The notes: generated by a model not told the origin, from the sequence alone. Positions 2 through 21,487 are shown, counted from the stretch's first letter. The stretch is DNA of 25,340 nucleotides from a virus (IMGVR_UViG_3300021791_000009:1-25340); one strand, 5' to 3'. Translations and numbers: made by a program.

Positions 2-184
2 GAGTCTGGCATCAGGGCAAAGGGAAAGGGTGGTCACTCACGTGTCATCCACACCCAGCACAGCGCGGCCTTTGACGCCAAGTCCCGTTTTGGACTCCCC
101 GCAGAAATTGAAGGAGGCAACAGCGGGACCGAGGCTTGGAATAACCTTTTCGCTGAAATCAAAAAGTCGAGGACTGAGAAATGA
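2..184 (+). CDS. C-terminal end of Sak4-like AAA ATPase / recombinase (5'-truncated)
   Basis: Manual translation of frame 2: ...KGKGGHSRVIHTQHSAAFDAKSRFGLPAEI...*. This resembles the 'AKNRYGLP' C-terminus of phage AAA_24/Sak4 proteins. The TGA overlaps the next ATG (ATGA), and an SSB-like gene follows. Confidence 0.65.
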   Translation, partial: ESGIRAKGKGGHSRVIHTQHSAAFDAKSRFGLPAEIEGGNSGTEAWNNLFAEIKKSRTEK

Positions 185-3430: not shown

Positions 3431-3638
3431 GGGGGACGACGGTCAGGTTTGGAGGTGTATAGACTCCCAAACCACTAGGCTGTCCAAGATAGAGGACATC
3501 ATCTGGAAGGGTAACGGTGACAGCCTGACGACACAGGTTGTGAAGCTGAGGACAGAACTAAGGACACTCGCCGTGGTGGCGACACTGCTGATACCTGTTG
3601 TTATGAAGGCTCTAGACCTATGGTTAGAAAAATCCTAG
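3351..3638 (+). CDS. Coiled-coil protein with C-terminal transmembrane helix (holin-like?)
   Basis: Heptad-like N-terminus and a single TM segment LAVVATLLIPVVM. Confidence 0.5.
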   Translation: MQRTQMEDLERRVILLEEKAKSELGDEGDDGQVWRCIDSQTTRLSKIEDIIWKGNGDSLTTQVVKLRTELRTLAVVATLLIPVVMKALDLWLEKS

Positions 3639-4504
3639 CACTGCTGTTGCTGCCACTTCTTACCCTAGGCTCGGAGCGGGATCAGGATTCACGCCCGTCG
3701 TACTACAACGCCACGGTTAAGATCGGCGGCTGCACAGGGGTCATCATCAAGACTGGACCAGAGGTGTCTGTTGGCATCTCCGCACAGCACTGCACCCCAG
3801 AGGTCGGTGCAATCACCAGCTTCACGAACCCTGATGGTACTGGCGGATACGCTAGGTGGGTGTCCGAGGATACTTCTAGCGACCTGTCTCTATTCAAGGT
3901 GTGGTCCAAGGACACCAAGCGAGTGATGGCGGCTGTTATGCCGGACAAGGAGAAGATCGCCAAGGAGTGTGAAGGGTGGGGCTACCCGAAGGGCAGGGGG
4001 CCAAGGTGGAAAAAACTCGAGTACGAGGGCAAGTTCCACATCACAAGCCTGAAAGCCGAGAGGTTCCAGTTCAGGGTCACGGACGGCGACTTCAATAACG
4101 GTGACTCCGGTGGTGGCGTCTATTGCAACGGCAAGCTAATTGGAATAACTTCCCACGGGTCGGAAAAACATAAGCACCTGTTTTCATGCACCAAGTCGCA
4201 GCTGAACGCTTTCCTGAAAAAGAACTCTGACAAGCTGTCAGCCGGTGAAGTAGAATGGGACGGGAGCAGGGTCCCGCCTCTCGACTCGGATAAAGATAGG
4301 ACCATTGCCTTGAAGGGGGTGATCGAAAGACTATCTAAGATGGAGAGCGAAAACGAAAAGCTGAGAGAGATAGTTCGCCGGATTGCGAACACGCCGACAA
4401 GGGTTCAGATACTGGACCCCGTCAGTGGGAAGGTTTTAGCAGACGAGTCCTATCCGTTAGGGACCCCAATTAGGCTACTGTTGCCAGAAATCAGGAGAAA
4501 GTGA
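3620..4504 (+). CDS. Secreted trypsin-like (S1) serine protease
   Basis: Signal peptide; catalytic triad motifs SAQHC, DLSL, GDSGGG; C-terminal coiled coil. Confidence 0.85.
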   Translation: MVRKILALLLLPLLTLGSERDQDSRPSYYNATVKIGGCTGVIIKTGPEVSVGISAQHCTPEVGAITSFTNPDGTGGYARWVSEDTSSDLSLFKVWSKDTKRVMAAVMPDKEKIAKECEGWGYPKGRGPRWKKLEYEGKFHITSLKAERFQFRVTDGDFNNGDSGGGVYCNGKLIGITSHGSEKHKHLFSCTKSQLNAFLKKNSDKLSAGEVEWDGSRVPPLDSDKDRTIALKGVIERLSKMESENEKLREIVRRIANTPTRVQILDPVSGKVLADESYPLGTPIRLLLPEIRRK

Positions 4505-4863: not shown

Positions 4864-5298
4864 GTGTTTGGGAAGAGCTTACGGGACAGGATGGCAGAGA
4901 AGTGGTTCGGGGTGAGGATGGCTGAGGAGGCCCTGAAGGTTTCAGACCTTGCGGACCTCATGCAGATCAACAGGGACGTTGTTCGCGCTCACAACAAGAC
5001 CCACCTCGAAAACTACGAGGAAGGCGACATGGGCAACATTCATGTAGGAGATGTCGTGAACAATACAAACGGAGAGCCTAAGGCTGGGTCGGCGGGAATT
5101 GGAAAGGGCTTGCTAACCACCATGCTGGTGTCTGCACTGGCAAGCGGCGGCGGGCTGGCCTACCTGATCCCAATGCTTCTGGATCGCCCTGTAGCTGAAG
5201 CGGGGTCTGGGTACACCCTTGGTCTAGGAAAACCTGACACGAAACAGGAGAAGAAAAGTGAAGTACCAAAACGCAAGGGGCAAGATCAGGAACGGTGA
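4864..5298 (+). CDS. Hypothetical membrane protein
   Basis: RBS GAGGAGG before GTG; TM segment LLTTMLVSALASGGGLAYLIPML. Confidence 0.6.
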   Translation: MFGKSLRDRMAEKWFGVRMAEEALKVSDLADLMQINRDVVRAHNKTHLENYEEGDMGNIHVGDVVNNTNGEPKAGSAGIGKGLLTTMLVSALASGGGLAYLIPMLLDRPVAEAGSGYTLGLGKPDTKQEKKSEVPKRKGQDQER

Positions 5299-5815
5299 TG
5301 TTCTGGCTTTCCGTGGTACTCGTTGGTACTCGTGGGTCATCAGGTATTTCACGCAGTCGAGAACGTCTCATGTGGGGTTCGCCCTGTGGATGCACGGACG
5401 ACTGTGCTGCATGGAAGCTCTTGAAGGTCGCGGCATCAGGGTGATCCCAGTTTCCAAATGCCTGAGTGACGGCGACTGGATTGACTGGTACGAGCTATAC
5501 AAGCCAGAGGACAGCAAGATCGACAGGCAGAAGCTGGTCAAGCATGCCCTGTCACACTGGGGAAAGCGTTACGCGCCGTGGTGGCAGTTCGCCCGCACTT
5601 GGTGTCGCTGGCTTCGCAGGTACATGGACAAGAAGGGCAGTCCACTGGACGTGGACCCAGACAGGTTCTTCTGTTCTGAGTTTGTGCTCACGTGTCTCAG
5701 GATGTCCGGCTACATTGGCGAAGGGTTTGCCTCTAATCTCAAGCCAGCGGCAGCATCGCCGGGCGACATTGTTGAGCTTCCCTGCCTGCACCGGATGGGG
5801 AAGCTGGAAATCTGA
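5258..5815 (+). CDS. Permuted papain-like NlpC/P60 amidase (YiiX/YaeF family)
   Basis: GDVLAFRG, SHVG (His) and FFCSEFV (Cys) in circularly permuted order; SPGD at the C-terminus. Confidence 0.8.
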   Translation: MKYQNARGKIRNGDVLAFRGTRWYSWVIRYFTQSRTSHVGFALWMHGRLCCMEALEGRGIRVIPVSKCLSDGDWIDWYELYKPEDSKIDRQKLVKHALSHWGKRYAPWWQFARTWCRWLRRYMDKKGSPLDVDPDRFFCSEFVLTCLRMSGYIGEGFASNLKPAAASPGDIVELPCLHRMGKLEI

Positions 5816-6553: not shown

Positions 6554-6653
6554 ACCCCCCATCTTGACAGATTCAGGATGACCTATCCATCGGGATGGCC
6601 CGCCCGAGGCCCGTACAGGGCAAATACGGCGGTCGTTTTTGATGGTAGTCCAC

Positions 6654-6695
6654 AAAAAAAAGGCCCCAACGAGGGATTACCTCGCTGGGGCCTTG
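6654..6695 (-). terminator. Intrinsic terminator of the minus-strand early operon
   Basis: AAGGCCCCAGCGAGG-TAATC-CCTCGTTGGGGCCTT continuing into a T8 tract, immediately after the stop at 6698. Confidence 0.85.
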
Positions 6696-6697
6696 CG

Positions 6698-7444
6698 TCA
6701 ACTCATCGTGAGAAGTTCAGTCATCATCCGTTCGGACTCAGCTTCGGTCCAGTCAACCACGAAGCCTGTCGTGTCTTTACGGGCCGCGCCTTTGGCGAGC
6801 AGCCCAACAACACAGGGCTTCGGGTCTAGAAATCTAAGGTCATGGTCGTCCCCGTCGATGACGGGGTAGTCCCAGTACCTCTCGGGAAACGGCTTGGTGC
6901 GGAATACGACTGATACATTCACGCCCATGTCCAGCAGCATGACACATTGCCCAGCGTTATTCTCTGACCGAGAAAACGTCAGGTAATAGTTGTCAGGCCA
7001 ACTAGAACCAATGACAGATTGCTCCGCGCGATCTGCGTGCTTGGTGTAGTCGTGGTACTGGCATGGGGCTGAATGGAAAAGTGACGGGGCTTCATCTTCC
7101 CAGCGTATGTCGGAAGTACCGTTCAGGCGGATTACCGCCGTCTGGCCCTTGCGGCTAGCGTGGGAGTGGGCAAGAGTACATTCTGCCTCGAGCGCACGGT
7201 TGAAGCCCTCTCGGTCCTCAAAGAACCAGCGGGTCTTCTCGTCGTGCGCCGCCATAACCTTATTGAGTTTGAAAAACCCAGAGTTACGGAAGCAGCCGTT
7301 CTTGCACCCCGTTGTCTCGCTCCCGCACACGTTGCCGAACCCAGAGGTATCCGATGGCGACAAGTGCATGACCCACATTGTGTAGTCCAGCATCTTGCCG
7401 TTGGTCTTGACCACCTTGGAGTTCTTATTCGACAACAACATCAT
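6698..7444 (-). CDS. Phage gene-88-like (GP88) protein
   Basis: C..C...C cluster, RLNGTSDIRWE, HDYTK, YYLTFSRSE, DGDDHDLRFLDP, VVGLLAKG; start placed at the ATG after RBS AAAGGAG. Confidence 0.75.
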   Translation of the reverse strand: MMLLSNKNSKVVKTNGKMLDYTMWVMHLSPSDTSGFGNVCGSETTGCKNGCFRNSGFFKLNKVMAAHDEKTRWFFEDREGFNRALEAECTLAHSHASRKGQTAVIRLNGTSDIRWEDEAPSLFHSAPCQYHDYTKHADRAEQSVIGSSWPDNYYLTFSRSENNAGQCVMLLDMGVNVSVVFRTKPFPERYWDYPVIDGDDHDLRFLDPKPCVVGLLAKGAARKDTTGFVVDWTEAESERMMTELLTMS

Positions 7445-7481
7445 AACTCTCTCCTTTCGTAAAAGTGACAAGTGACTGAGT

Positions 7482-7512
7482 GGACCGGTGCGGGTGTCCC
7501 CAACACCGGCCC
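7482..7512 (-). other. 31-nt GACA-capped intergenic hairpin (copy 1)
   Basis: GGGCCGGTG..GGG-GACA-CCC..CACCGGTCC; same length and ends as 8766-8796. Confidence 0.5.
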
Positions 7513-7518
7513 CAAAGG

Positions 7519-8199
7519 TTAGATGGTCTGGGTTACTTCTGCGAAGTAGTGGTCAGCCCCTACTGGCTGTTCAACAGGTCTAAGAACACTTCCAACCGCA
7601 GGAATGACAACACATGGACGCCTAAGCGTTTCTGGGCTGTCCGTCTTTGCGATCATGCAGGAAAGCTCCACCGCCTCAGACGCCTCCACAGACCACACAT
7701 CGTCGTTTGTGAAGGTTGTGAAACCGGCAGGACCCGCCCAAGGTGTGTAATGGACGGTATGTGTCCCCGGATCCGAGTCTGAGAGTCCCGTCGCTCCGGT
7801 CTGTCTCCAAATCCCCGAGGCTCCGAGAGATGGATGGTCGTCCACCTTCACGCGAGCAGAGATGAGGTCAAATGTGGCTCGGAAGATGTCGATCCTGTAG
7901 TAGGTGTCAGATAGCAACTTGCCGCCCTCTAAGGTTGAGTGCGGAAAGTGCCACTGTCCCCCTATTGCGATGACATCTCCGAGCACACGAGCGTGGACGT
8001 TCTTGCGCCCCTCGTCGTTTGCCCTCTCCCTGCCAGCCTCGCTGACTTGGAATGATGACGCCCCCATCCAGACATGCTGGGCGTGGGCTATCACCTTGCC
8101 GTAGTGAAAGTCGGGGAGTTCCCGCGTGGAGGTATCCTCGTTCCGAATTGAGAACAGCCTCTTGTGACTGTTCCAGTAGACTCCACATTTCAATCCCAT
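7519..8199 (-). CDS. Conserved phage hypothetical protein
   Basis: VYWNSHKRLFSIR...AGRERA...RKNVHA motif recurrent in phage proteins; ATG after AAAGGAG. Confidence 0.65.
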   Translation of the reverse strand: MGLKCGVYWNSHKRLFSIRNEDTSTRELPDFHYGKVIAHAQHVWMGASSFQVSEAGRERANDEGRKNVHARVLGDVIAIGGQWHFPHSTLEGGKLLSDTYYRIDIFRATFDLISARVKVDDHPSLGASGIWRQTGATGLSDSDPGTHTVHYTPWAGPAGFTTFTNDDVWSVEASEAVELSCMIAKTDSPETLRRPCVVIPAVGSVLRPVEQPVGADHYFAEVTQTI

Positions 8200-8267
8200 A
8201 ACATTTCTCCTTTCGCTTGGTAGGGCCAAGCACCCTGCCCGCATTGCGACGGTCTGTCGCTCTGGGC

Positions 8268-8320
8268 AAAAAGCGGGGCGGGGGAATTGAACCCCCGCTC
8301 AGGCCGTGTCCTTCCCGCTC
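8268..8320 (-). ncRNA. Anticodon-less tRNA-like element
   Basis: GCGGG/CCCGC acceptor-like stem coaxial with GCGGGGG-TTCAATT-CCCCCGC T-arm (12 bp to the T-loop); D-like hairpin AGG-ACACGG-CCT; followed by TTTTT. Confidence 0.55.
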
Positions 8321-8327
8321 GTCCGCA

Positions 8328-8726
8328 CTACTCTCGTTCAGTCCTATCGGGGTGCGTGAGGCGTGCCAGAAGCTCGTCTCTTACATCCTCGAAGGCTTTG
8401 TTGAGCGTATGTTGCGGACTGGTAATGCCATCGGCAATGCCGCTGGCCTCGTCCTTCTCGGCAGGGGGGTTGTCGTCTTCAACGAGAGCAGGATTCCAGA
8501 ATTTCATCCTGATAATCCCAAGTTTCTTGCGGGTCCGCACGGTAACCTTCAACCCGTTGCGGGCGGCGTAGTTCCACGCCGCGCCGATCAAGGATTGCGT
8601 GGTGCAGTCAAAGTCCTTGTCTTTGACTACTTCCCAGATGTTCCCATCTGACCATACTTCCCACGGGTACTTGGTGTTCCCGTGTGACGATCCTCCCTTG
8701 AAGAAGGACTTCACCTTGCACGCCAT
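8328..8726 (-). CDS. Hypothetical protein, paralogue of 8806-9108
   Basis: KYPWEVWSDGNIWEVVKDKDFDC; ATG after AAAGGAG. Confidence 0.7.
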   Translation of the reverse strand: MACKVKSFFKGGSSHGNTKYPWEVWSDGNIWEVVKDKDFDCTTQSLIGAAWNYAARNGLKVTVRTRKKLGIIRMKFWNPALVEDDNPPAEKDEASGIADGITSPQHTLNKAFEDVRDELLARLTHPDRTERE

Positions 8727-8765
8727 ACTTTTCTCCTTTCGTGTTAGAACAAGTAATTGGCGATT

Positions 8766-8796
8766 GGACGGGGTGGCCTGTCGGCACACCCCGCCC
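8766..8796 (-). other. 31-nt GACA-capped intergenic hairpin (copy 2)
   Basis: GGGCGGGGTG.GCC-GACA-GGC-CACCCCGTCC. Confidence 0.5.
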
Positions 8797-8805
8797 CTAG
8801 ACTCC

Positions 8806-9108
8806 TTAGAACGGTGGAGTGTTGCCAGCGTCAGTGGACGTGTCCTCAAGACTCTCGTCTTCGGTCAAGTCCCTGTCGCTGAAGCGAAACCTGATGCTTT
8901 CTGTCTCTGGTAACGTCATAGAGACAACCTTCTTTCCGAAGCTCTTGGCGATGGAATACAGGCCGTTACGGAAGCTGTTGAGCGAGCAGTCGAAATCGTC
9001 TCCTCGCTCCACCTCGTACGTCTGTCCATCGGTCCATTCGTCCCACGGGTATTGGTGGGAGCGGCCCCTGTTGGTTACCAGAAGTTCAGAATCAATCACC
9101 TTCGCCAT
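8806..9108 (-). CDS. Hypothetical protein, paralogue of 8328-8726
   Basis: QYPWDEWTDGQTYEVERGDDFDC; RBS AAAGGAG. Confidence 0.75.
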   Translation of the reverse strand: MAKVIDSELLVTNRGRSHQYPWDEWTDGQTYEVERGDDFDCSLNSFRNGLYSIAKSFGKKVVSMTLPETESIRFRFSDRDLTEDESLEDTSTDAGNTPPF

Positions 9109-9289
9109 TTCTTCTCTCCTTTCTCAAACGCAGTAACTCGGTCACATCGGACTCGTAAATAGTTACCGCTTCCAGTTCAGTGAGTCCTAGGGACAAGTAC
9201 CTGTCCTTGTACCCGTCCCAGTTCCAACCACGGAAGAGCATGAACTCCTCGTGGTTACTCAGGGCATCGATTCCTTCAATGCCTTTCAC
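9092..9289 (-). CDS. Hypothetical protein
   Basis: RBS AAGGAG upstream, overlaps the next gene. Confidence 0.55.
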   Translation of the reverse strand: MKGIEGIDALSNHEEFMLFRGWNWDGYKDRYLSLGLTELEAVTIYESDVTELLRLRKERRNGEGD

Positions 9290-9302: not shown

Positions 9303-9395
9303 CTAAGAGTGAAGGGCCTTGCCGCTGATGTAGCCAACTACAACGGCTAGTAAAACAAGGCCCACGATTACAAACCCAGCTTCCTGAGTAAGCAT
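9303..9395 (-). CDS. 30-aa single-pass membrane peptide
   Basis: MLTQEAGFVIVGLVLLAVVVGYISGKALHS after GGAGAGAAAGGA; first ORF downstream of the ribozyme at 9428-9499. Confidence 0.55.
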   Translation of the reverse strand: MLTQEAGFVIVGLVLLAVVVGYISGKALHS

Positions 9396-9427
9396 TCCTT
9401 TCTCTCCTGATGGTAGTTGATGTGAAT

Positions 9428-9499
9428 GGAGCATTGGTCGACTTACGCCTCTCGGCTGCGAGTGCCAGCATCGCCACGTGGCGGCTGCTCCGTGATGCC
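9428..9499 (-). ncRNA. HDV-like self-cleaving ribozyme (Rz8)
   Basis: P1 GGCATC/GATGCT, P2 GGAGCA/TGCTCC, P3 GCC/GGC, L3 GCCACGT, P1.1 GG, P4 with GCC-GAGA-GGC, J4/2 CCAA. Confidence 0.8.
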
Positions 9500-9526
9500 T
9501 GCCCCCTTGCGGGGGCGTGAAGTTAG

Positions 9527-10612
9527 TTACGCAGCCATGGCGATCTTCCGCCATTCGCTGGGAGTCGAGTCGACCAGCCGACCACCGAACTGTTCAAGCT
9601 CAGTGGCTCTGTCGTAAGACTCCCGATTCTCAGCAGCACGGGTGATGGCGTTTGCCATACCCCACTGGCTGAGGTCGCCGCCAGCAATCAGGTTGGACAT
9701 CACGTCGTCGGTTTCGTCCTCGGACAATCCGAAGCGACGTTGCACAACCTCAATCGCCTTCTGGGGTTTCCCCTCAATGCGACGGTCGGTAGTCTCACGA
9801 AGCTGGTCGAGCCTCTCCTCCCAGCTACTCTGGTCAAAGATAGCGTCGACTGCGTCCCTGATTTTTGCCCAGAAGGCTGCGTCATCGAGCTTCCGGGTGG
9901 AATCCTTGTAGAACTCCTGAGCAGCATCGACCGCGCCGATGCCCGTACTACGTCCAAGGTGGGTCTTGCGAACCGATGTTGCCTGAACCATCCCGTTCGT
10001 GCAGACGAGCCGATAAAGAAACTCGTCAATCCTCAGGGATCCCTGTCCGACCTCACTGTTGGACACAACAATCCCGCCCTGAACCGTGTCGCCAACGGTG
10101 ACATCGCCAACCAACCTCGGGCTTGTGGCCTTGAGGTAGAGGCGTGACTCCGTTAGCTCGCACGACTTCATTTCGAGATCGCTGTCTTGGAACGCTGGCA
10201 TTATCGCGCCAAGCAGTTCGTAGTTGTCCAGAGGACGGTAGCGATCAGAGAGGAACGCACGAACCGTGTTGGTTCTGGCGTCGGTTCGGACAAGACGCTT
10301 CTTCCCGCCATCATCATTCCACCAGTGGTTGATGTTGGTGGCGAGAAGACTCGGGCACTCGGCCCGCATCCTGTCGTAGTACGCCTTTGGAATCTTCGCA
10401 GCGGCAGCGATCTGCCCGTGGGCGAGATCAGTTGCCCAGTGGGGCGGCAGGTCATCCGAGATGTCGAATAACACGCCACCTTGATGCACAGGAAATGGTT
10501 CCCGTGCGGCGTCGGCTTCCATTGCTCTGGTGTTGACCACAAAGTCCTTCCCGTTGTCCCGCAACGCTTGGACCTCTTGGGCAATCTCAGGCATATTACG
10601 TCCCAACTTCAT
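9527..10612 (-). CDS. DUF932-domain phage protein
   Basis: FLSDRYRPLDN, SNSEVGQGS and RLVCTNGM motifs. Confidence 0.8.
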   Translation of the reverse strand: MKLGRNMPEIAQEVQALRDNGKDFVVNTRAMEADAAREPFPVHQGGVLFDISDDLPPHWATDLAHGQIAAAAKIPKAYYDRMRAECPSLLATNINHWWNDDGGKKRLVRTDARTNTVRAFLSDRYRPLDNYELLGAIMPAFQDSDLEMKSCELTESRLYLKATSPRLVGDVTVGDTVQGGIVVSNSEVGQGSLRIDEFLYRLVCTNGMVQATSVRKTHLGRSTGIGAVDAAQEFYKDSTRKLDDAAFWAKIRDAVDAIFDQSSWEERLDQLRETTDRRIEGKPQKAIEVVQRRFGLSEDETDDVMSNLIAGGDLSQWGMANAITRAAENRESYDRATELEQFGGRLVDSTPSEWRKIAMAA

Positions 10613-10680
10613 AAGTCTCTCCTTTCGAGAGTGGTGAGGGGGATAACCTGCCCCCTCTACAGGTGCCAGCTATTACTGGC

Positions 10681-10759
10681 TGAGAGCCTCAGCTTAGGCC
10701 GTCATGGTTGTCACTCGGGCCGCACAACACCACCACTTGACGGTGGCTCTCATGGTGTC
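10681..10759 (-). ncRNA. HDV-like ribozyme, CPEB3-like 1-bp P1.1 type (Rz7)
   Basis: P1 GACACC/GGTGTT, P2 TGAGAGCC/GGCTCTCA, P3 ACC/GGT, L3 GTCAAGT, GT, J4/2 CTGA. Confidence 0.75.
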
Positions 10760-10760
10760 T

Positions 10761-11089
10761 GACGAGTGGGCGGTAAACGACGCCCGACCTGTAGATAACC
10801 CACAGACATCGGCGGTTCCACCGCCTGCTGCTGCTAGCAGGGCCTCTACTGAGAACGGAAGACCGCATGACCCTCGAGGGACGTGAAGGGACCTGTCGCA
10901 GTAGTAATGCGGTAGCTGGAGCAGTGAGTAAGAGCGTGTGTCATCCGTGGTCACCTAGGCTCACACGGCGAGGGAAACGTCTACTGCACTACCAGCCCTA
11001 TCCGATTCTAAAGGAGGGAGGTATGTCTCGTTTCGGAGTCAATATAGTCTCATGGTTCTCAATCGGGCGGCGATTACCGCCCACTCATC
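10761..11089 (-). ncRNA. Candidate ~330-nt structured ncRNA closed by a long terminal stem
   Basis: GATGAGTGGGCGGTAA (11089-11074) pairs with TTACCGCCCACTCGTC (10776-10761); many nested stems; ends 1 nt before the Rz7 cleavage site. Confidence 0.6.
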
Positions 11090-11106
11090 CTTTTGTTTAT
11101 AAGGGC

Positions 11107-11224
11107 AGAGAGGAGAGTGCAGCGAGGCTTCACCCTCGGCCCGTTCTCACTTCGAGAAGGTAGTGCGGCTCGTTTTCCGCACGATTTTCACCCTCGGTCA
11201 CGCACTCGCTGCACTCAATCTCTC
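11107..11224 (-). ncRNA. Candidate multibranch RNA with two CCGAGGGTGAA repeats
   Basis: 12-bp perfect stem 11115-11126/11205-11216 enclosing two hairpins and the 11-nt repeat at 11129-11139 and 11187-11197. Confidence 0.5.
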
Positions 11225-11272
11225 GTTCCTACACTATGTATCGACACACAGTGCAGGGGACTTTACTTGTTT

Positions 11273-11488
11273 CTACTCAGTTTCGACTTTTTCTTGGGTT
11301 GGCTCGAAGCCAAAGTAAAACCGTGGCATGTGTTGGAACTCAAGGGAGCCGATCACATTGTCGGCCTTCCTCGTGACCACGACGAATGGGGCAGCGAACT
11401 GCCGCACCTCGTAGTCCTCTTGGAGTTCCTTCGTATCCCACACACGGCCTGCCAATCCTTCTAGCTGTTCCCTGTTCAAGTCTTGCAT
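11273..11488 (-). CDS. Conserved small phage protein
   Basis: RBS AAAGGAG; 71 aa with WDTKELQEDYEV..FAAPFVVV.RK.D...GSLEFQH.PRFY. Confidence 0.75.
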   Translation of the reverse strand: MQDLNREQLEGLAGRVWDTKELQEDYEVRQFAAPFVVVTRKADNVIGSLEFQHMPRFYFGFEPTQEKVETE

Positions 11489-11521
11489 CTGAGTCTCTCC
11501 TTTGTGAAGGGAAGTGAAACA

Positions 11522-11574
11522 GGAGCATTGGTTGGTTATCCAGCACTGCCTCGTGGCGGCTGCTCCGTAGTGCC
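11522..11574 (-). ncRNA. Minimal (P4-less) HDV-like ribozyme (Rz6)
   Basis: 53 nt: P1 GGCACT/AGTGCT, P2 GGAGCA/TGCTCC, P3 GCC/GGC, L3 GCCACGA, GG, linker ATAACCAA, J4/2 CCAA. Confidence 0.8.
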
Positions 11575-11691
11575 TAAGGCGTGACCTGAGGGCTGGGTTT
11601 TCTGGCTGGCATTGAGCAACAGAGCTTTGCCGCCGTCAACTTGCTTCACCTCGTCCCACCAGTTCGTGATGGTAGGTCAAGCCTCATCTTG

Positions 11692-12018
11692 CTACTTGCC
11701 GTCAATCCGATTGATCTCGAAAGGCTTGCTACCCACCTTCGGGTAGACCAGCGTTCCGTCAACGTTACTGACCTGAGTGTCCTCGGACACAACCCACCAT
11801 ATCTGGGCCTCCTTGACCTTCAAGGCTCGCCCCCTGATCTTCTTGAGTTCGGCCTTAGCCTCCTCAACTGTGTCGCCAATACCGTAGTAGTTGGCGACCA
11901 TGATCAGGATCTTGGTGAAGTTGTGTCTCATGGGAATGCGGTCTTCCGCATCCACAGGCGCACCAACAGGGTCCGCTTCGTAACCCGTGTAGGGCTTTGA
12001 TCTCTTGATTGCGTCCAT
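11692..12018 (-). CDS. Hypothetical protein
   Basis: RBS GAGGAG, 108 aa. Confidence 0.7.
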   Translation of the reverse strand: MDAIKRSKPYTGYEADPVGAPVDAEDRIPMRHNFTKILIMVANYYGIGDTVEEAKAELKKIRGRALKVKEAQIWWVVSEDTQVSNVDGTLVYPKVGSKPFEINRIDGK

Positions 12019-12044
12019 AGCTTCTCTCCTCTTGAGAAAGTGAT

Positions 12045-12107
12045 GAGCATTCGTTCTCGGCTCACAGGCCGTCCAACACCGCCACGGGGAGGCTGCTCTT
12101 TGGTGTC
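12045..12107 (-). ncRNA. HDV-like ribozyme (Rz5)
   Basis: P1 GACACC/GGTGTT, P2 GAGCA/TGCTC, P3 GCC/GGC, L3 TCCCCGT, GG, P4 CGGC/GCCG, J4/2 CGAA; close to canonical HDV. Confidence 0.88.
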
Positions 12108-12150
12108 ATCCCTACCCCATGTATCGACACATGGGGCAGGTCACTTGAGA

Positions 12151-12477
12151 CTATTCTTCATCAAGTAATGGACATCCGTACTCGTCAACCACGGTGACCC
12201 CGCGATCCCTGAGTATCCGACAGGCTTGCTCGCTCGCCCTCGCAAAAGCACTCCTTGCCACACGCTGGGGAGTAGGCTCCCTCAGGAGTCGGTGGAGGTG
12301 CAGTGCTATCAGCGTTCCACAAGTCTTGTCGCAAAACTCAATGACCTTCAGGTCACCATCGCTGCCGCCCTCGTGCGTTAGCTTGTCGCTAAGCGAGGAC
12401 TTCCTTGGTTCGCCACACCAACTGGCGAAGCGAACAGGATCAGCAACGGTAATCCATCGTCTAATGATGTCAAACAT
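12151..12477 (-). CDS. Hypothetical protein
   Basis: ATG (MFDIIRRW) after GAGGAG; the longer ORF-track start runs through the ribozyme. Confidence 0.6.
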   Translation of the reverse strand: MFDIIRRWITVADPVRFASWCGEPRKSSLSDKLTHEGGSDGDLKVIEFCDKTCGTLIALHLHRLLREPTPQRVARSAFARASEQACRILRDRGVTVVDEYGCPLLDEE

Positions 12478-12505
12478 ATCTCTGTCTCCTCTTGGGGAAG
12501 TGATT

Positions 12506-12576
12506 GAGACGTTAGTCGGCTTACGCCTTGCGGCCGCGAGTGCCAGCACCACCACGTGGAGGTGTCTCTTGGTGCC
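12506..12576 (-). ncRNA. HDV-like ribozyme (Rz4)
   Basis: P1 GGCACC/GGTGCT, P2 GAGAC/GTCTC, P3 ACC/GGT, L3 TCCACGT, GG, P4 with GCC-GCAA-GGC, J4/2 CTAA. Confidence 0.88.
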
Positions 12577-12624
12577 TGAACAGGGGCAAACCTGATGGTA
12601 GTAAGGTCCGCCCCTGTCCGTTCT

Positions 12625-13002
12625 CTACTCCCTGTTCTCAAGTAGGTCGTCATACAATCCAGCCGATGCGTACGCATCGTAGATAGTGTCGAGTTGGGTC
12701 TTGAGTGTCTGACTTAGATTGGTTGTCATGCCGTATTTATGCCCGCTGGTGTCGTAGCAGGTCAATTCACCCTCAACCATTTCACAGGTGAGGCTTGCCG
12801 AAAATGTGTCGGACCCGATGAATGACCCACGAGCGAACTCTCTCGAAACGAGCAACCCGTCGTCAGAATGCTCAATCTCCCAATCTCTCCACGTCACGGT
12901 GTCGTTTGCCACCGGAACCAATGTGCATCCTTCTCGATAGCCACTGACGACTTCGAGATGGTTCTGCGCTTTGGTCTTGGCGTTACTCGGCAAGAATTTC
13001 AT
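12625..13002 (-). CDS. Hypothetical protein
   Basis: RBS GAGAGGA, 125 aa. Confidence 0.7.
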   Translation of the reverse strand: MKFLPSNAKTKAQNHLEVVSGYREGCTLVPVANDTVTWRDWEIEHSDDGLLVSREFARGSFIGSDTFSASLTCEMVEGELTCYDTSGHKYGMTTNLSQTLKTQLDTIYDAYASAGLYDDLLENRE

Positions 13003-13031
13003 GATGTGTCCTCTCGTAAGGGGAAGTGAAT

Positions 13032-13108
13032 GACTCGTCAGCTTAGGCCGTCGTAGCTGTCGCTCGGGCCGTACAGCAGCACCACCGTGAAGGTGAGTCG
13101 TCGCTGCC
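13032..13108 (-). ncRNA. HDV-like ribozyme, CPEB3-like type (Rz3)
   Basis: P1 GGCAGC/GCTGCT, P2 GACTC/GAGTC, P3 ACC/GGT, L3 TTCACGGT, GT, J4/2 CTGA. Confidence 0.75.
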
Positions 13109-13144
13109 TGAGGGGCTGATGGTAGTCAGCCCCTCTGTTCTTCT

Positions 13145-13402
13145 CTACTCGGGGAACTTGATATGACGTCCGATCCAATCGTCTATTGACGATGAGGATA
13201 TCTTCGCGAGAGCCTGATCGGCAGCCTGAAATAACGGGATTACGGCAAGGACCTCGGGGCCGCCCATCACCTCGACAACCGCGTTGTGCAGTTCCCGTTC
13301 AGTGATGATGCCCTTGTTGTATAGCCCCTGCTGTTTCTCCAGCACCTCAATGGCCCTGTCAAGTTGTTCAATCTTGATCACAGGCTGTTCTCGGTGGTTC
13401 AT
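13145..13402 (-). CDS. Hypothetical protein
   Basis: ATG (MNHREQP) after AAAAGGAG; 85 aa, helical. Confidence 0.65.
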   Translation of the reverse strand: MNHREQPVIKIEQLDRAIEVLEKQQGLYNKGIITERELHNAVVEVMGGPEVLAVIPLFQAADQALAKISSSSIDDWIGRHIKFPE

Positions 13403-13429
13403 GTCTAGTCTCCTTTTGGGGAAGTGAAT

Positions 13430-13510
13430 CGAACCGCTCAGCTTAGGCCGTCTTAGCTGTCGCTCAGGCCGTACAACAGCCACCACTTGAAGGCGGGTTC
13501 GCTGGCTGTC
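13430..13510 (-). ncRNA. HDV-like ribozyme, CPEB3-like type (Rz2)
   Basis: 7-bp P1 GACAGCC/GGCTGTT, P2 CGAACC/GGTTCG, P3 GCC/GGT, L3 TTCAAGT, GT, J4/2 CTGA. Confidence 0.78.
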
Positions 13511-13535
13511 TGTTGGGCGTCCCTGCCCACCAGTG

Positions 13536-13721
13536 CTAGGCACTGGCTCCTAGATTTGCTAGATGCTTGCAACAGGTGAAGCCCTGCCGGAACTTACGAA
13601 ACCGCTGCGAAAAGCACGAGCAGTCAAGCTGCCCGTTTGGCTTCCGCGTGATGTCGTAGTGCCTGTCACCTGACGATGACCGCACGGTTGCGATGACTTC
13701 ACGTTTCTTACGTTGCTTCAT
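13536..13721 (-). CDS. SWIM zinc-finger protein
   Basis: SSSGD.HY.I and CSC-x-CKHL SWIM motif. Confidence 0.75.
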   Translation of the reverse strand: MKQRKKREVIATVRSSSGDRHYDITRKPNGQLDCSCFSQRFRKFRQGFTCCKHLANLGASA

Positions 13722-13749
13722 AGCTCTCTCTCCGTGGGAAGTGTTAAGG

Positions 13750-13820
13750 AACCTGCCTCATCAGGCCGCAGGCGGTTAGTCCTGCGACAAGCCCCACTGA
13801 GGGGGCTTTCGGCTAGCTCG
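13750..13820 (-). ncRNA. Type II hammerhead ribozyme
   Basis: GCC-GAAA-GCCCC(CTCAGT)GGGGC-TT|GTCGCAGG(ACTAACCG)CCTGCGGC-CTGATGA-GGC. Complete catalytic core; predicted cut between 13789 and 13788. Confidence 0.85.
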
Positions 13821-14151
13821 CAATCGTCGTGGTTTGAGTTGTCTGACATACACTCTGAATATCGAAGGGCGGGTTGTTTTTCTTCTTGCGTCGTCGTCGC
13901 TTCTTGCTCTTGCTCACGACGGGCTTCGGCGGGGTGTCGTTCTTCTTCTTCGGAGCAGGCGGGGGGCTTGGCTTGCGGCCGTTCTTACTGGGCCGCGTTG
14001 TGCGGTGAGTCTTCACCACACGCTTCGCCTTCCGCTTTGCCGATCTAGATTTACGAGCACCCTTGTTGATCCCATCGAAAGCAGTATCAAGCAGCCAGAT
14101 TGCTACAAGAAGCAAAACAAGACCGATCTCGATAATGATTAGCGTTATCAT
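13813..14151 (-). CDS. N-terminally membrane-anchored, highly basic protein
   Basis: Hydrophobic N-terminal 22 aa, then a Lys/Arg/Pro-rich tail; first gene of the early operon. Confidence 0.6.
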   Translation of the reverse strand: MITLIIIEIGLVLLLVAIWLLDTAFDGINKGARKSRSAKRKAKRVVKTHRTTRPSKNGRKPSPPPAPKKKNDTPPKPVVSKSKKRRRRKKKNNPPFDIQSVCQTTQTTTIAS

Positions 14152-14182
14152 TTTCTCGTACCTCTCAGAAGTGTGAACTCGT

Positions 14183-14257
14183 GTTGATTAGCTTAGGCCG
14201 TCATCGGTGTCCCTCAGGCCGAACAGCAGCGCCACTAGAAGGCTCAACTTTGCTGCC
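14183..14257 (-). ncRNA. HDV-like ribozyme, CPEB3-like type (Rz1)
   Basis: P1 GGCAGC/GCTGCT, P2 GTTGA/TCAAC, P3 GCC/GGC, L3 TTCTAGT, GT, J4/2 CTAA. Confidence 0.78.
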
Positions 14258-14556
14258 GGACCACTGGGTTGGTACAATGTCTAAGACATCGAGCAAGCCC
14301 AGTGGCCTCACTTCGTAAGGAATTGAGATTGAGACACGTTCGGTGGTTACGATCCCACAGGCTCTACAGCCCAGCCGCTTTGAAAAATCCATTCAAGGCT
14401 CCGAACGCTTTGGCTTCAACCCGCCCGTATCCAGTTGGATGCTGTGTAGCATGGGTCACAGAGGCCCGCCTCCATGCTGCGGACCTGCTTTGAGTAAAGC
14501 CAACGGTAGCGACATCCCATCATGGGGGCTTTCCGCCTCTTCGCGATCCGTCGCTG
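14258..14556 (-). ncRNA. Candidate ~300-nt structured leader RNA
   Basis: Consecutive multibranch stems (AGCGAC/GTCGCT; TTGGCTTTA/TGAAGCCAA; CGTTCGG/CCGAACG; CCACTGGG/CCCAGTGG) between the promoter and Rz1; no convincing ORF. Confidence 0.5.
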
Positions 14557-14562
14557 TAATAG

Positions 14563-14591
14563 TTATCGGCAAGGCATGCCCATCACTTTAG
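14563..14591 (-). promoter_or_regulatory. Sigma28 (FliA/SigD)-like promoter of the early operon
   Basis: CTAAAG-N15-GCCGATAA: perfect -10 box, spacer 1 nt longer than the E. coli consensus; an upstream T-tract; the structured leader starts 6-8 nt downstream. Confidence 0.65.
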
Positions 14592-14881
14592 TAGTTAGCA
14601 AAAAAAAAGCAGAGCATTAGCAGGGCAGGGCAGGGGGGGTGGGGTGTGGTTATTGTCGAGACAGCGAAGGATCGAGCACGCGCGTACCACAGCAGCTGCA
14701 CAGCGTCAACACACGCATGATCCCTGCTGTTTTGGGCGTATGTGTACATAACCGAGCTTATCAGACGTTGAATATGGGACCCATTTGATCGATCTCGACC
14801 GCCTCAGACCGAACCAACCGCCCCCGACCTAGCGTACGCTATATAAGACATAAGACCCACTCACCGATTCTGGAGGTTGAA

Positions 14882-15130
14882 ATGGCCCGCTGGTTCGTTC
14901 TTACGTTTGGTGGTATTGCCTTCCTGCTGGCCGCTTTGGTGGGCCAGCTAGTGGCTGTAGTGGTATGTTCCGAGGGGGACCCAACCCTTATCCTGTGTTC
15001 CATTGTCGTCGGCAACAGTGCTGCTACGACGATGCTAGTATTCTGGTGCCACTATGCGGATCGCATGTTGCGAGCCGAGTATTGGCGAGAACTGGGCGGA
15101 AAGCCCAACAGGAGGAAGAAGGATGCGTAG
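14882..15130 (+). CDS. Small two-TM membrane protein
   Basis: RBS GGAGG, two hydrophobic segments, basic C-terminus (holin-like topology). Confidence 0.6.
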   Translation: MARWFVLTFGGIAFLLAALVGQLVAVVVCSEGDPTLILCSIVVGNSAATTMLVFWCHYADRMLRAEYWRELGGKPNRRKKDA

Positions 15131-15968
15131 GGACCCGTCACTCAGGTTGGTCGAGGTATTGGCCGCATTGGCAGCTGTTTCGGTAATGGCTGCTTATACG
15201 ATGGCCCACGACCAGAAGCTGCCGAAGGATGTTCCGGCTTACATGCAGGACATCAGCGTAACGATCAGGGCGGGTTTCTCGGAAGGCAGCGGCGTTGCCA
15301 TCAGTAGAGGCGATCAGACGTTCGTATGGACGGCGGGGCACGTGGTGGATGGGTTGCGTAAGACGCGGAAGGTTACGGACCCGAAGACGGGGACCCAGCG
15401 GACTATTATCGAGTTCGACGACGCCAAGATTCTAAAGACGCTTGTGGAGGGCGGCAGGACGGTTGGCAGGCTGGAGATGGACGCCGAGGTGATTCGTTAC
15501 TCGGACGCCGACAACGGCCACGATCTCGCCATCCTTCGTGTCCGCAAGAAGGGCTTTATCAAGATCAGCGCGATCTTCTACGACGAGGGAAAGCCGCCCA
15601 AGCTGGGAACCCGCCTCTTTCACGTGGGCTCCCTACTTGGCCAAGTGGGCTCGAACAGCATGACTTCAGGTATCGTCAGTCAGCACGGTCGCTTGATCGG
15701 CAAGGTAACCTTCGACCAGACGACGGTAACGGCCTTCCCCGGAAGCTCGGGTGGCGGCGTATACTTGACTGACGGTCGATATGTAGGGATGCTTGTCCGT
15801 GGGGCCGGTGAGGGTTTCAACCTGATCGTCCCTGTTCGCAGGATGCGTAAATGGGCCAAGAACGCCAACGTCCTCTGGGCACTTGACCCTCGAGTAAAGA
15901 TGCCCTCTGAGGATGACATGAAGAAGATTCCTGTCGAGGACATCGGGGCTGACTTTGGAGGGAAGTAA
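15123..15968 (+). CDS. Secreted trypsin-like (S1) serine protease
   Basis: GSGV, WTAGHV, DLAIL and PGSSGGG motifs; signal-like N-terminus from ATG 15123. Confidence 0.88.
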   Translation: MRRDPSLRLVEVLAALAAVSVMAAYTMAHDQKLPKDVPAYMQDISVTIRAGFSEGSGVAISRGDQTFVWTAGHVVDGLRKTRKVTDPKTGTQRTIIEFDDAKILKTLVEGGRTVGRLEMDAEVIRYSDADNGHDLAILRVRKKGFIKISAIFYDEGKPPKLGTRLFHVGSLLGQVGSNSMTSGIVSQHGRLIGKVTFDQTTVTAFPGSSGGGVYLTDGRYVGMLVRGAGEGFNLIVPVRRMRKWAKNANVLWALDPRVKMPSEDDMKKIPVEDIGADFGGK

Positions 15969-20771: not shown

Positions 20772-21200
20772 ATGCCACAAAAGAAAAGTTCTTGGCGAAA
20801 GGCGTTTGAGAAGAAGGCGAGAGCAGCCTTTCTGAGGCAGAGGATCGCCAACCTTCAACGCCAAATTTTCGAGACAATGCAAAGTACAAATCCGGGGCAG
20901 GTCTTCTCTGGGATAGAAGATCAGGCTAGGCGTATTGGGGCTGGCTACAGCCACCTTTCCGATGACGGCATCCGAGCCGCCGAAGATCAGGCTAGGCGTA
21001 TTGGGGCTGGCCACAGCATCCAGATCGGACCTCCCCCACCAACACCAGTGGACATGAGACAGAAGCGGACGAGACAGCTGAGACAGAAGCTGGGTCGCCG
21101 TGTGTTTCCTTGGTGGACAAGGGTACAGCCCAGCTTCATGGACCCGTACCGCCTGCTCGAACACCACCCTGTCCGCCCTATTGGTTCTGAGGGGTACTAG
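20772..21200 (+). CDS. Basic hypothetical protein with internal repeat
   Basis: EDQARRIGAG occurs twice. Confidence 0.55.
   Translation: MPQKKSSWRKAFEKKARAAFLRQRIANLQRQIFETMQSTNPGQVFSGIEDQARRIGAGYSHLSDDGIRAAEDQARRIGAGHSIQIGPPPPTPVDMRQKRTRQLRQKLGRRVFPWWTRVQPSFMDPYRLLEHHPVRPIGSEGY
20916..21011 (+). repeat. 30-bp perfect direct repeat, 66-bp period
   Basis: GAAGATCAGGCTAGGCGTATTGGGGCTGGC at 20916-20945 and 20982-21011. Confidence 0.9.
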
Positions 21201-21487
21201 TGACAGTCGTGTATAGGGTCAACGGTAAAGAGGTCACCCGCAGGGACTTCAACAGGAACCCCAAGGGTTTAGGACAAATCAGGCGTTCGTGGGAACCCTC
21301 TCAGGTAATCAAGTCGGACGGCGCGTCCGTTCACCCCTCGGATCGGGAAGCTGCGATGGACCACGCCAAGCGTAACGGGGTCCCGACCTTCTTTGACACT
21401 GATGGTAGGCCGCATTTCAAGAGCCTGAGACACCAGACCAAGTACCTGCGCAAGATCGGCATGCACAATAACGACGGAGTCCACTAG
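21200..21487 (+). CDS. Hypothetical protein between portal and scaffold
   Basis: Coupled start; SDGASVHP and GVPT.FD..G.P.F.S motifs. Confidence 0.65.
   Translation: MTVVYRVNGKEVTRRDFNRNPKGLGQIRRSWEPSQVIKSDGASVHPSDREAAMDHAKRNGVPTFFDTDGRPHFKSLRHQTKYLRKIGMHNNDGVH

Follow-up and report, generated by a model that had tools for sequence, protein, structure and literature searches.

Why should a phage place a predicted self-cutting RNA in front of nearly every small gene of an operon, and what would this do to the transcript and to the order of the genes? The question is raised by a 25,340-nt stretch of DNA from an uncultured marine phage (the window), in which nine predicted ribozymes, eight HDV-like folds and one type II hammerhead, lie between small genes in the operon of a tailed phage. 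All array features lie on the minus strand. A sequence-only reading of the locus had described repeated units of ribozyme, spacer, RBS, ORF and 3' hairpin, and this array was borne out on the minus strand by descriptor matches that do not occur in shuffled sequence. The features, in the direction of transcription, are as follows.

14259..14307, minus: long hairpin folding at -27.4 kcal/mol (z -5.8), 1 nt upstream of the first predicted cut
14183..14257, minus: HDV-like ribozyme 1, kink-turn-like P4 (descriptor, covariation)
13813..14151, minus: ORF of 112 aa with a hydrophobic N-terminus and a basic tail, standing where relatives have the F9 gene
13747..13813, minus: type II hammerhead, CUU triplet, predicted cut 13789/13788 (RF02276, 32.1 bits, below the cut-off of 37; descriptor)
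13536..13721, minus: ORF of 61 aa, CxC...CxH pattern, no Pfam match; we take it to be SWIM-like
13515..13528, minus: hairpin, 4 nt before cut
13430..13510, minus: HDV-like ribozyme, kink-turn-like P4 (descriptor)
13145..13402, minus: ORF of 85 aa, family F18, with CACTT leader and GGAG RBS upstream
13110..13135, minus: hairpin, 1 nt before cut, loop with CTACCATCA
13032..13108, minus: HDV-like ribozyme, kink-turn-like P4 (descriptor)
12625..13002, minus: ORF of 125 aa, family F12
12578..12619, minus: hairpin, 1 nt before cut (z -5.8)
12506..12576, minus: HDV-like ribozyme, two-pair P1.1, bulged P4 (descriptor; weak RF02682 match, 12.4 bits)
12151..12477, minus: ORF of 108 aa, family F4
12111..12140, minus: hairpin, 3 nt before cut (z -5.3)
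12045..12107, minus: HDV-like ribozyme, short P4 (descriptor; weak RF02682 match, 12.5 bits)
11692..12018, minus: ORF of 108 aa, family F11
11575..11686, minus: long stem around an inserted structure, reaching the cut
11522..11574, minus: minimal HDV-like ribozyme without P4, G replacing U20 (descriptor)
11273..11488, minus: ORF of 71 aa, family F2, found widely in viruses and without a Pfam family
10830..11060, minus: conserved non-coding block A, candidate ncRNA (alignment of four records)
10765..10788, minus: hairpin, 5 nt before cut
10682..10759, minus: HDV-like ribozyme, kink-turn-like P4, G replacing U20 (descriptor)
9527..10612, minus: DUF932 protein, 361 aa, with 69-nt structured leader (PF06067, E 7e-10)
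9501..9516, minus: hairpin, 1 nt before cut
9428..9499, minus: HDV-like ribozyme, bulged P4, G replacing U20 (descriptor)
9303..9395, minus: hydrophobic ORF of 30 aa, an insertion between repeated RBS-like GAAAGGA, no ribozyme behind it
6698..9289, minus: downstream ribozyme-free part of the operon, five genes, the last two L5 gp82-like and GP88
8271..8320, minus: tRNA-like acceptor/T-arm hairpin, intergenic within the ribozyme-free part
6652..6694, minus: intrinsic terminator-like hairpin and T run, closing the operon

Predicted ribozymes and their folds

We used structure descriptors to locate the ribozymes. The HDV-like folds begin at 14257, 13510, 13108, 12576, 12107, 11574, 10759 and 9499 on the minus strand. 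The HDV and hammerhead descriptors found no match in 30 dinucleotide shuffles, and a relaxed HDV descriptor found none in 50. Replacing the catalytic C in the descriptor gave three matches with A, two with G and none with U, all of them alternative registers of known loci, so that no new locus arose in these controls. The ribozymes occur only on the sense strand, in a single copy per junction and nowhere else in the 25-kb window, and near-identical paralogs are seen for several subtypes. Six related records contain 42 further HDV junctions with compensatory changes; across all seven records a ribozyme precedes 51 of the 55 listed genes, and three junctions in the relatives have none. The ribozyme at 10682..10759 is missing from two of the five records that span its junction. 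In an unrelated AT-rich lineage the equivalent slots are occupied by type I hammerheads and tRNA-like hairpins.

All eight window copies fit a nested double pseudoknot of P1, P2, P3 and P1.1, with P4 optional; P1.1 is a two-pair helix in 19 of 47 copies and a single pair in the remainder. The P1-P4 pairing of ribozyme 1 is kept by compensatory changes across six orthologs, both sides having changed in 8 of 22 pairs while 131 of 131 cells are paired. The catalytic C75 in J4/2, followed by N-R-A, is present in all HDV matches, several of which carry one or two extra bases between J4/2 and P2. A G1-U wobble at the cut site is found in 47/47 HDV folds; the relaxed descriptor required this pair, yet the first descriptor, which did not, gave the same eight window copies. 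G25, at L3 position 6, is present in 44/44 short-L3 copies and is required for fast cutting. Its partner U20 is kept in five of eight window copies and 34 of 47 overall (G20 in ten, C20 in three) and is thus missing from three and 13, respectively, with relatives differing between U20 and G20 at some identical slots. In 22 of 50 HDV copies, including four of the eight in the window, P4 is kink-turn-like, having a 3-nt bulge and then tandem G-A and A-G pairs between two stems (the simple kink-turn consensus used for comparison is from PMC5435971), and the 2-bp C-stem is kept in 22/22 of these copies with four pair types.

The Rfam scan of the window matched the hammerhead alone, below its cut-off. 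None of the Rfam HDV models reaches its cut-off, RF00094 giving no match and the best, RF02682, scoring 12.5 against 44 bits. Rfam misses about 50 natural HDV-like variants (kink-turn-like P4, G20, long L3). A theta ribozyme identity was ruled out because the cut sites are not at tRNA 3' ends: the window has no tRNA gene, and the predicted cuts come after mRNA hairpins.

The hammerhead has the core CUGANGA / GAAA / UH; its stems are 8, 3 and 5 bp long, and stem II is open whereas I and III are closed. Its CUU triplet is slow-cleaving in hammerheads. Four complementary bases, read from the sequence, could form a 4-bp pseudoknot between loop I and the 3' tail, which as a single copy is without covariation support; such a pseudoknot is described for type II hammerheads in PMC3088659. 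The SWIM-like gene is preceded by this hammerhead here, by an HDV-like ribozyme in four relatives and by no ribozyme in one.

Junctions and gene order

The junctions are stereotyped. The start codon lies 25-40 nt from the ribozyme end in 47 of 50 HDV leaders (seven records), the other three being long DUF932 leaders, and CAC starts 2-7 nt after the ribozyme end. CACTT[CT] is present in 7/9 window leaders compared with 0/21 plus-strand genes; the bare motif TCACTTYC is not clearly enriched, with six matches, a number reached in 6 of 100 shuffles. The motif also precedes ribozyme-less genes (1/5 in the window, 6/16 in relatives). The distance of 25-40 nt given earlier for CACTT belongs to the start codon. 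At the other end of each gene, most cuts come 0-4 nt after a hairpin free of a U-tract. The five hairpins proposed earlier are borne out, at 9501-9516, 12111-12140, 12578-12619, 13110-13135 and 13515-13528, and we found further stems at 14259-14307, 11575-11686 and 10765-10788. A stem of -12 kcal/mol or lower ends within 3 nt of 41/50 HDV cuts in the seven records, compared with 29% of 1000 random positions, and the last 8 nt before any cut contain at most three T. Sequence after the stop codon tracks the upstream gene (identity 0.72 versus 0.37) and the leader tracks the downstream gene (0.87 versus 0.67); 0/2000 permutations reach either value.

Among close relatives, variation in gene order and content is confined to the ribozyme zone and absent downstream. 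Order is discordant in 12/99 gene pairs in the ribozyme zone and in 0/186 downstream in the same five records, genome pairs in this comparison not being independent, and it is fixed across the ribozyme-free part. The tRNA-like hairpin in that part is a candidate host RNase P/Z cut site; the relative L013 gives a tmRNA 3'-end match. Homology ends within 3 nt of the cut in 11 of 39 cases upstream and 7 of 47 downstream, most ends lying elsewhere in the intergenic repeat, and the breakpoints are spread over the hairpin, the cut, the ribozyme and the spacer or RBS, some of them falling within ORF starts. Joints at cuts and spacers are also seen in DNA runs (for example, 13109 to 12112 and 12503 to 13029). 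Because some swaps fall within ORF starts (F11/F14, F18) or between RBS repeats (the 30-aa insertion), the ribozymes are not the sole crossover points. The moving unit would be closer to leader-ORF-hairpin, with the ribozyme going with either side. One record, G003, has an exonuclease and a Sak4-like gene, and the C-terminus of Sak4 is encoded at window positions 2-175. The association of hairpin with upstream gene and leader with downstream gene, together with the scattered homology ends, fits homologous recombination and not a site-specific cut, and the genes are likely reordered through recombination within repeated motifs. Thus, the cassette swapping suggested by the sequence-only reading is upheld in that order and content vary only where ribozymes occur; comparison of gene gain and loss in relatives with ribozyme positions did not uphold the exact bounding by ribozymes, the ends being scattered along the repeat.

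Fate of the transcript and of the repeats

Our preferred explanation, which we consider probable, is that the ribozymes cut one transcript into linear, end-protected single-gene mRNAs and that the intergenic repeats are sites of homologous recombination. The genes form a single minus-strand block, closed by a terminator-like element at about 6652; no promoter was identified. One probably early transcript of about 8 kb would be cut by each ribozyme during synthesis, giving units of 469, 278, 402, 532, 469, 533, 815, 1260 and about 2840 nt. Block A would leave with the 71-aa gene in the 815-nt unit; this block has no Rfam match and little covariation in its four-record alignment, and RNA-library contigs cover 10828-11274. 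The hairpin before each cut, the upstream gene's own, would shield the RNA 3' end and prevent upstream sequence from misfolding the ribozyme, while the 5'-OH held in the P1 pseudoknot would slow 5'-end-dependent decay and the weakly folded CACTT leader would leave the RBS open. Every gene would then carry its ready-made expression unit regardless of its neighbour, like a natural RiboJ insulator, and crossovers between diverged repeats of 60-150 nt, via the phage exonuclease/Sak4-like pair, would shuffle the units. Ribozyme-capped, hairpin-tailed single-gene RNAs, as predicted earlier, are well supported by anatomy, covariation and precedent; the one RNA run gave two assembled contigs that are uninformative on ends or strand. 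The precedents include clustered prophage hammerheads, whose cleavage is seen both in vitro and in E. coli (PMC3088659), and RiboJ, with which mRNA increases about twofold and protein 2-10-fold (PMC6206723). What a 5'-OH end does is host-dependent, and glmS decay, the slow CUU triplet and the loss of U20 count against the preferred reading, as do the sub-threshold Rfam HDV scores, the three ribozyme-less junctions of relatives, the non-independence of the genome pairs and the crossovers away from ribozymes.

The cuts could instead shorten or time message life, through glmS-like decay or the uncoupling of neighbours, rather than stabilise the pieces; we think this unlikely. Early genes need shut-off, variant cores (G20, the CUU triplet, missing ribozymes) could tune rates, and PMC6765202 reports degradation following glmS cleavage. 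However, the units are folded at both ends, with a 5' pseudoknot and a 3' hairpin (within 3 nt at 41/50 cuts), the upstream gene and its hairpin are inherited together, and RiboJ-type cuts increase expression in E. coli. Nor are the repeats likely to be selfish or neutral elements spread in intergenic space, with cutting and shuffling as side effects: although ribozymes are dispensable at some junctions and near-identical paralogs exist, their strict position relative to the start codon, one per junction and sense strand only, their absence elsewhere in 25 kb, the pairing kept by compensatory change and the replacement, at one and the same gene, by a ribozyme of unrelated class make this highly improbable.

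Closure of the units into circular mRNAs by host RtcB, as the sequence-only reading had envisaged, is very unlikely. RNAs with 5'-OH and 2',3'-cyclic phosphate ends are RtcB substrates, so that the ends would suit the enzyme, and RtcB is common in hosts (10/14 control genomes). The cyclic phosphate product of cleavage is stated in PMC13635239. Against this, a search of five partial relatives (40-67% complete) found neither RtcB nor an Rnl2-type ligase, P1 pairs the 5' G in 47/47 folds, and the first 40 nt of a unit are predicted to form less than one pair with its last 40 nt in 4/8 units and at most about five in the others. Perreault et al. 2011 (PMC3088659) sought circles from prophage hammerhead clusters and detected none; circularisation therefore found no support. 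We regard as extremely unlikely a dedicated cassette mover, whether a site-specific recombinase of the integron kind, with the CACTT spacer or the cut as its target, or reverse transcription of released units. The order permutation is integron-like and some homology ends do lie within 3 nt of the cut, but the majority lie elsewhere in the repeat, and the five partial relatives have neither a tyrosine recombinase (PF00589) nor a reverse transcriptase; with no single fixed crossover site, an integron-like array was rejected. Moreover, F4 stands behind five distinct ribozyme subtypes across six records, so the ribozyme does not travel with the downstream gene, which a released-RNA unit would forbid.

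The ribozyme repeat might tentatively be assigned a dual use, yielding context-independent mRNAs as RNA and serving as a crossover target as DNA, to give integrase-free plug-and-play cassettes. The phage could then gain, lose or rearrange early genes with no need to retune their expression. In its boldest form, host RtcB may circularise some units and a kink-turn-binding host protein may tune cutting. The purpose of inter-gene phage ribozymes has been a question since 2011, and roles of self-cleaving ribozymes in bacteria are called "largely elusive" in PMC6765202. The lineage holds natural controls, with one gene behind an HDV-like ribozyme, a hammerhead or nothing, and permuted orders adjoining a fixed-order zone, so mRNA insulation or stabilisation by the cut and repeat-driven shuffling are directly testable. 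The approximately 50 HDV-like variants are also material for ribozyme chemistry and insulator parts.

Comparison with known systems

The arrangement is already known for hammerheads; what is new is the HDV-based version, the kink-turn-like P4 and the measured shuffling. As in the prophage clusters of Perreault et al. 2011 (PMC3088659), several sense-strand ribozymes flank single, variable operon genes or short blocks; processing into single-gene mRNAs is proposed there too, and type II hammerheads with the loop I/3'-tail pseudoknot occur. Here, by comparison, 8/9 ribozymes are HDV-like, so that each unit would keep an intact ribozyme at its 5' end. The array is also longer, its parts recur in one stereotyped sequence of hairpin, cut, ribozyme, leader and RBS, and order permutation among close relatives is shown. 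The HDV-like copies share the nested double pseudoknot, G1-U wobble, G25 and C75 with RF00094 and RF02682 (HDV-F-prausnitzii), whereas the kink-turn-like P4, the G20 variants and the 24-25 nt L3 of relatives lie outside these models. The gut-phage ribozymes of Kienbeck et al. 2024 (PMC10879173), both minimal HDV-like and theta, are likewise HDV-like folds in Caudoviricetes, sense to nearby genes, and the 11574 copy without P4 resembles minimal drzs; however, theta ribozymes cut at tRNA 3' ends whereas our copies precede protein-gene RBSs, and most have P4, often with a kink-turn-like loop.

Two further parallels concern function. In phage T7, RNase III processing of the early transcript turns a polycistron into stable single-gene mRNAs, and in phage mosaicism short repeats at gene borders guide exchange by boundary-sequence or homeologous recombination. 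Here, in contrast, cutting would be free of host nucleases, and one repeat is likely both RNA signal and DNA crossover target. RiboJ, which is hammerhead-derived, is engineered and used once per construct, whereas the array here is natural and repeated along an operon. What the two have in common (Clifton et al. 2018, PMC6206723) is a self-cleaving RNA and a 5' structure before the RBS, giving expression independent of upstream context.

Ribozyme folds between the small genes

The ribozyme array in the window is a real feature and belongs to a block of small minus-strand genes. This block runs from 14151 to 6698, holds DUF932, an L5 gp82-like gene and GP88, and is closed by a terminator-like hairpin. 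Among the plus-strand genes of the record (25.3 kb, about 57% complete) are those for a terminase, a replication initiator and a Holliday junction resolvase, along with a major-head-like gene. The layout and families of the minus-strand genes lead us to infer that they are early genes. No sigma-70 promoter was found above chance.

Because Rfam scans detected none of the HDV copies, purpose-written structure descriptors were used. The window folds did not reach the thresholds of RF00094 and RF02682, and the hammerhead alone was seen by Rfam, below the cut-off. A descriptor of the HDV nested double pseudoknot gave eight matches and a hammerhead descriptor one, of type II; all are intergenic and on the minus strand, and 30 shuffles of the window gave no match to either descriptor. 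An initial strict HDV descriptor had recovered just one of the eight copies, and swapping the catalytic C in the descriptor gave no new loci. In six orthologs of ribozyme 1, all 131 of 131 cells are paired and 8 of 22 pairs show two-sided change, against 0–3 when the partners are slid; these orthologs are related sequences, so shuffle counts there are not probabilities. Despite the Rfam misses, the HDV folds are thus well supported.

G25 is present in all 44 short-loop HDV copies, and U20 in 34 of 47, being missing from three of the eight in the window. Because G25, which is required for fast cutting, pairs with U20 (PMC13635239, excerpt), copies that lack U20 may be slower. P4 fits the simple kink-turn consensus (PMC5435971, excerpt) in 22 of 50 HDV copies overall, four of them in the window, and the short stem of this kink-turn-like P4 is conserved with four pair types; one HDV copy has no P4. 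Three HDV-like folds in relatives have an L3 of 24–25 nt, in two of them with an inserted hairpin:

L002, 2499-2578
L015, 7689-7769
L020, 8755-8835

A type III hammerhead match within the DUF932 gene of L003, L015 and L016 was discarded as chance.

Six related records of this design were counted as independent (L002, L015, L004, L006, L020 and L013); in those compared, shared stretches show about 65–92% nucleotide identity. Same or near-identical records (L001, L003, L005, L007-L012, L016, L021-L024) and records that are too short (L014, L017) were omitted from the counts. In the resulting seven records, a ribozyme precedes 51 of the 55 listed genes: 50 are HDV (47 by descriptor, three by eye) and one is the hammerhead. 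The gene behind that hammerhead, which we take to be SWIM-like from its CxC...CxH pattern and for which Pfam gave no match, is preceded by an HDV ribozyme in four relatives and by none in a fifth.

Pfam, PHROGs and a protein atlas assigned no function to the small cassette proteins; DUF433 was rejected as an identity, its score of 0.78 being too weak. A ribozyme-pattern search of genome contigs did not find the host (97 matches, chance-like), and among 104 new loci scanned, descriptor matches occurred in seven, namely three relatives already known and four loci with single implausible folds in GC-rich DNA. Four sequencing runs hold at least half of the window's words, three labelled marine or seawater and one unlabelled. 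Separately, this small phage genome encodes two trypsin-like proteases (3620-4504 and 15054-15968) and a permuted papain-like amidase (5258-5815), and a plus-strand ORF contains a near-perfect 36-nt direct repeat (20916-20951 and 20982-21017).

Junction layout and the predicted fate of the RNA

At 47 of 50 HDV junctions, CAC starts 2–7 nt and the start codon lies 25–40 nt past the ribozyme end. The motif CACTT[CT] occurs in 39 of 50 HDV junctions and in seven of the nine window junctions, and before none of the 21 plus-strand genes. It also precedes ribozyme-free genes of the block (one of five in the window, 6 of 16 in relatives), which rules it out as part of the ribozyme and makes it an operon-wide, weakly folded translation leader. 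A switch that sequesters the RBS was likewise ruled out, as the leaders fold at -2.4 to -5.3 kcal/mol, the DUF932 leader excepted.

On the upstream side, a stable stem without a U-tract ends within 3 nt of the predicted cut in 41 of 50 junctions, compared with 29% of random positions. The five pre-cut hairpins proposed in the sequence-only reading were all borne out, and three more were found. A 9-mer, CTACCATCA, occurs six times against 0.63 expected for the pattern, mostly in hairpin loops ahead of cuts, and is a possible protein-binding site; CTACGGTCA is frequent in relatives at the matching positions.

Copies of CTACCATCA in the window
13117-13125, minus
12593-12601, minus
11667-11675, minus
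9408-9416, minus
6640-6648, minus
21400-21408, minus

A second hairpin-loop motif, TGTCGATACA, lies 3' of the F4 and F2 cassette genes (12120-12129 and 11237-11246, minus) and is kept in relatives. Upstream of ribozyme 1, at about 14300-14620 (minus), is a conserved, apparently structured leader without a promoter match, also seen in L015, L006 and L020. Conserved GC-rich bulged hairpins directly follow stop codons between ribozyme-free genes at 8727-8805 and 7445-7518 (minus), and are possible nuclease or stability signals.

The predicted units measure 278–1260 nt, and the final one about 2.8 kb. The 5'-OH of an HDV-led unit would be paired within P1, and the unit would close with a hairpin that bears a cyclic phosphate. 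RNase E acts poorly on RNAs that carry a 5'-OH. In E. coli, RiboJ brings an about twofold gain in mRNA and a two- to tenfold gain in protein, with stability as a possible cause (PMC6206723, excerpt), whereas glmS cleavage leads to decay (PMC6765202, excerpt). The cut units are therefore likely to be stabilized, but in a host-dependent manner.

The further suggestion that units are joined into circular mRNAs found no support. No RtcB or RNA ligase was found in the five partial relatives, the unit ends have little predicted end-to-end pairing, and Perreault et al. 2011 did not detect circles from hammerhead clusters, according to a data-not-shown statement (PMC3088659, excerpt). RNA run X20 has two contigs over 10828-11274 with no go-back joint, two contigs being too few to bear on absence, ends, strand or circles; its single joint recurs in DNA runs.

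Gene order and possible crossover points

Across the seven records, 20 of 165 shared gene pairs from the ribozyme zone stand in discordant order. Among the five records that cover both zones, 12 of 99 pairs are discordant in the ribozyme zone and 0 of 186 in the downstream ribozyme-free zone; gene pairs are not independent in this comparison, and about three rearrangements would account for the discordant pairs. Family F19 was merged with F18, which it matches weakly (E 0.0045), and Fy with F12, which it matches strongly.

In the 40 HDV junctions flanked by two genes, the first 25 nt past the stop codon track the upstream gene (identity 0.72, background 0.37), the leader tracks the downstream gene (0.87, background 0.67) and the ribozyme tracks both neighbours (0.71 and 0.77, background 0.56), each association lying beyond 2000 label permutations. 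Of 39 pairs in which homology was followed upstream from a shared gene, 11 lose it within 3 nt of the cut, 14 inside the ribozyme, 12 farther upstream and two in the leader. Of 47 pairs followed downstream, seven lose it at the cut, 10 inside the ribozyme, two in the spacer, 15 at the RBS or ORF start and 13 in the hairpin. In contigs of seven DNA runs, cuts and spacers also carry joints and loose ends, although at 90% likeness these joints sample relatives, with partly paralogous matches, rather than events within one genome; the runs compared were 8 of 24 listed.

Cassette swapping at the ribozyme repeats, as the sequence-only reading had it, is supported in that order varies in the ribozyme zone and not downstream, but the breakpoints are scattered rather than exactly at ribozymes. 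ORF N-terminal swaps between cassette genes and a 30-aa insertion between RBS repeats (9303-9395) also count against a model with crossovers only at ribozymes. Genes for an exonuclease and a Sak4-like annealing protein are present in one relative, and the window opens with the 3' end of the Sak4-like gene; neither a tyrosine recombinase nor a reverse transcriptase was found in the five partial relatives. Homologous recombination inside diverged repeats would be the simplest reading of the shuffling.

Block A, a conserved stretch of about 200 nt, is a candidate new non-coding RNA, swappable among relatives: it is covered by RNA-library contigs, shows two-sided change in 2 of 61 pairs (four close sequences), and gave no Rfam match and no distant copy. 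A manA-like RNA (RF01745, E 3e-11, below the cut-off) occupies one shared intergenic slot in three relatives, with no copy in the window; RNAs of the manA class have been described in cyanophages and in marine sequences (PMC2864571, excerpt).

Non-coding elements
Block A: window 10830-11060 (minus); L002 3390-3625; L004 9640-9870; L017 455-690
manA-like RNA: L013 1703-1904; L017 801-986; homologous stretch L015 ~9645-9840

Lineage spread and known systems

No descriptor match came from the distant DUF932 homologs (L018, L019, L040-L045) or, for the 71-aa protein, from 11 of its 16 distant homologs, and the array is therefore lineage-specific; at distant-homolog loci, other ribozyme classes were checked by Rfam alone, in seven loci. 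In an unrelated AT-rich virus lineage with the 71-aa gene (L027, also L026 and L028-L030), type I hammerheads and also tRNA-like hairpins precede the RBSs of small genes, one of which is ArdC-like. Two adjacent hammerhead copies there have an identical stem I, which could permit self-ligation of the intervening unit; circles would on this count be more plausible here than in the window. The tRNA-like acceptor/T-arm hairpins, which lie between genes at places without a ribozyme and in the window fall in the ribozyme-free part of the operon, are possible RNase P/Z punctuation signals. The gene-border cut rather than a particular fold appears to be under selection.

Type I hammerheads and tRNA-like hairpins
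Type I hammerheads: L027 8043-8097, 8470-8523, 12259-12319
tRNA-like hairpins: window 8271-8320 (minus); L002 6565; L015 12550; L013 4678; L027 9502, 10222, 11017; L029 9616

In the literature searched (largely non-subscription), we found no HDV-dominated array of this kind, no kink-turn P4 in one and no gene shuffling at such repeats. Minimal HDV-like ribozymes have been described in phages, chiefly at the ends of tRNAs (PMC10879173, excerpt). Prophage hammerheads flank single, variable genes and cleave in vitro and in E. coli (Perreault et al. 2011), and a 2019 review still gives the polycistron-processing idea as unresolved. This lineage offers natural controls for that open question of ribozymes between phage genes. 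The window array is distinct from the theta system and from integrons, and in its working would resemble the 2011 hammerhead clusters and RiboJ.
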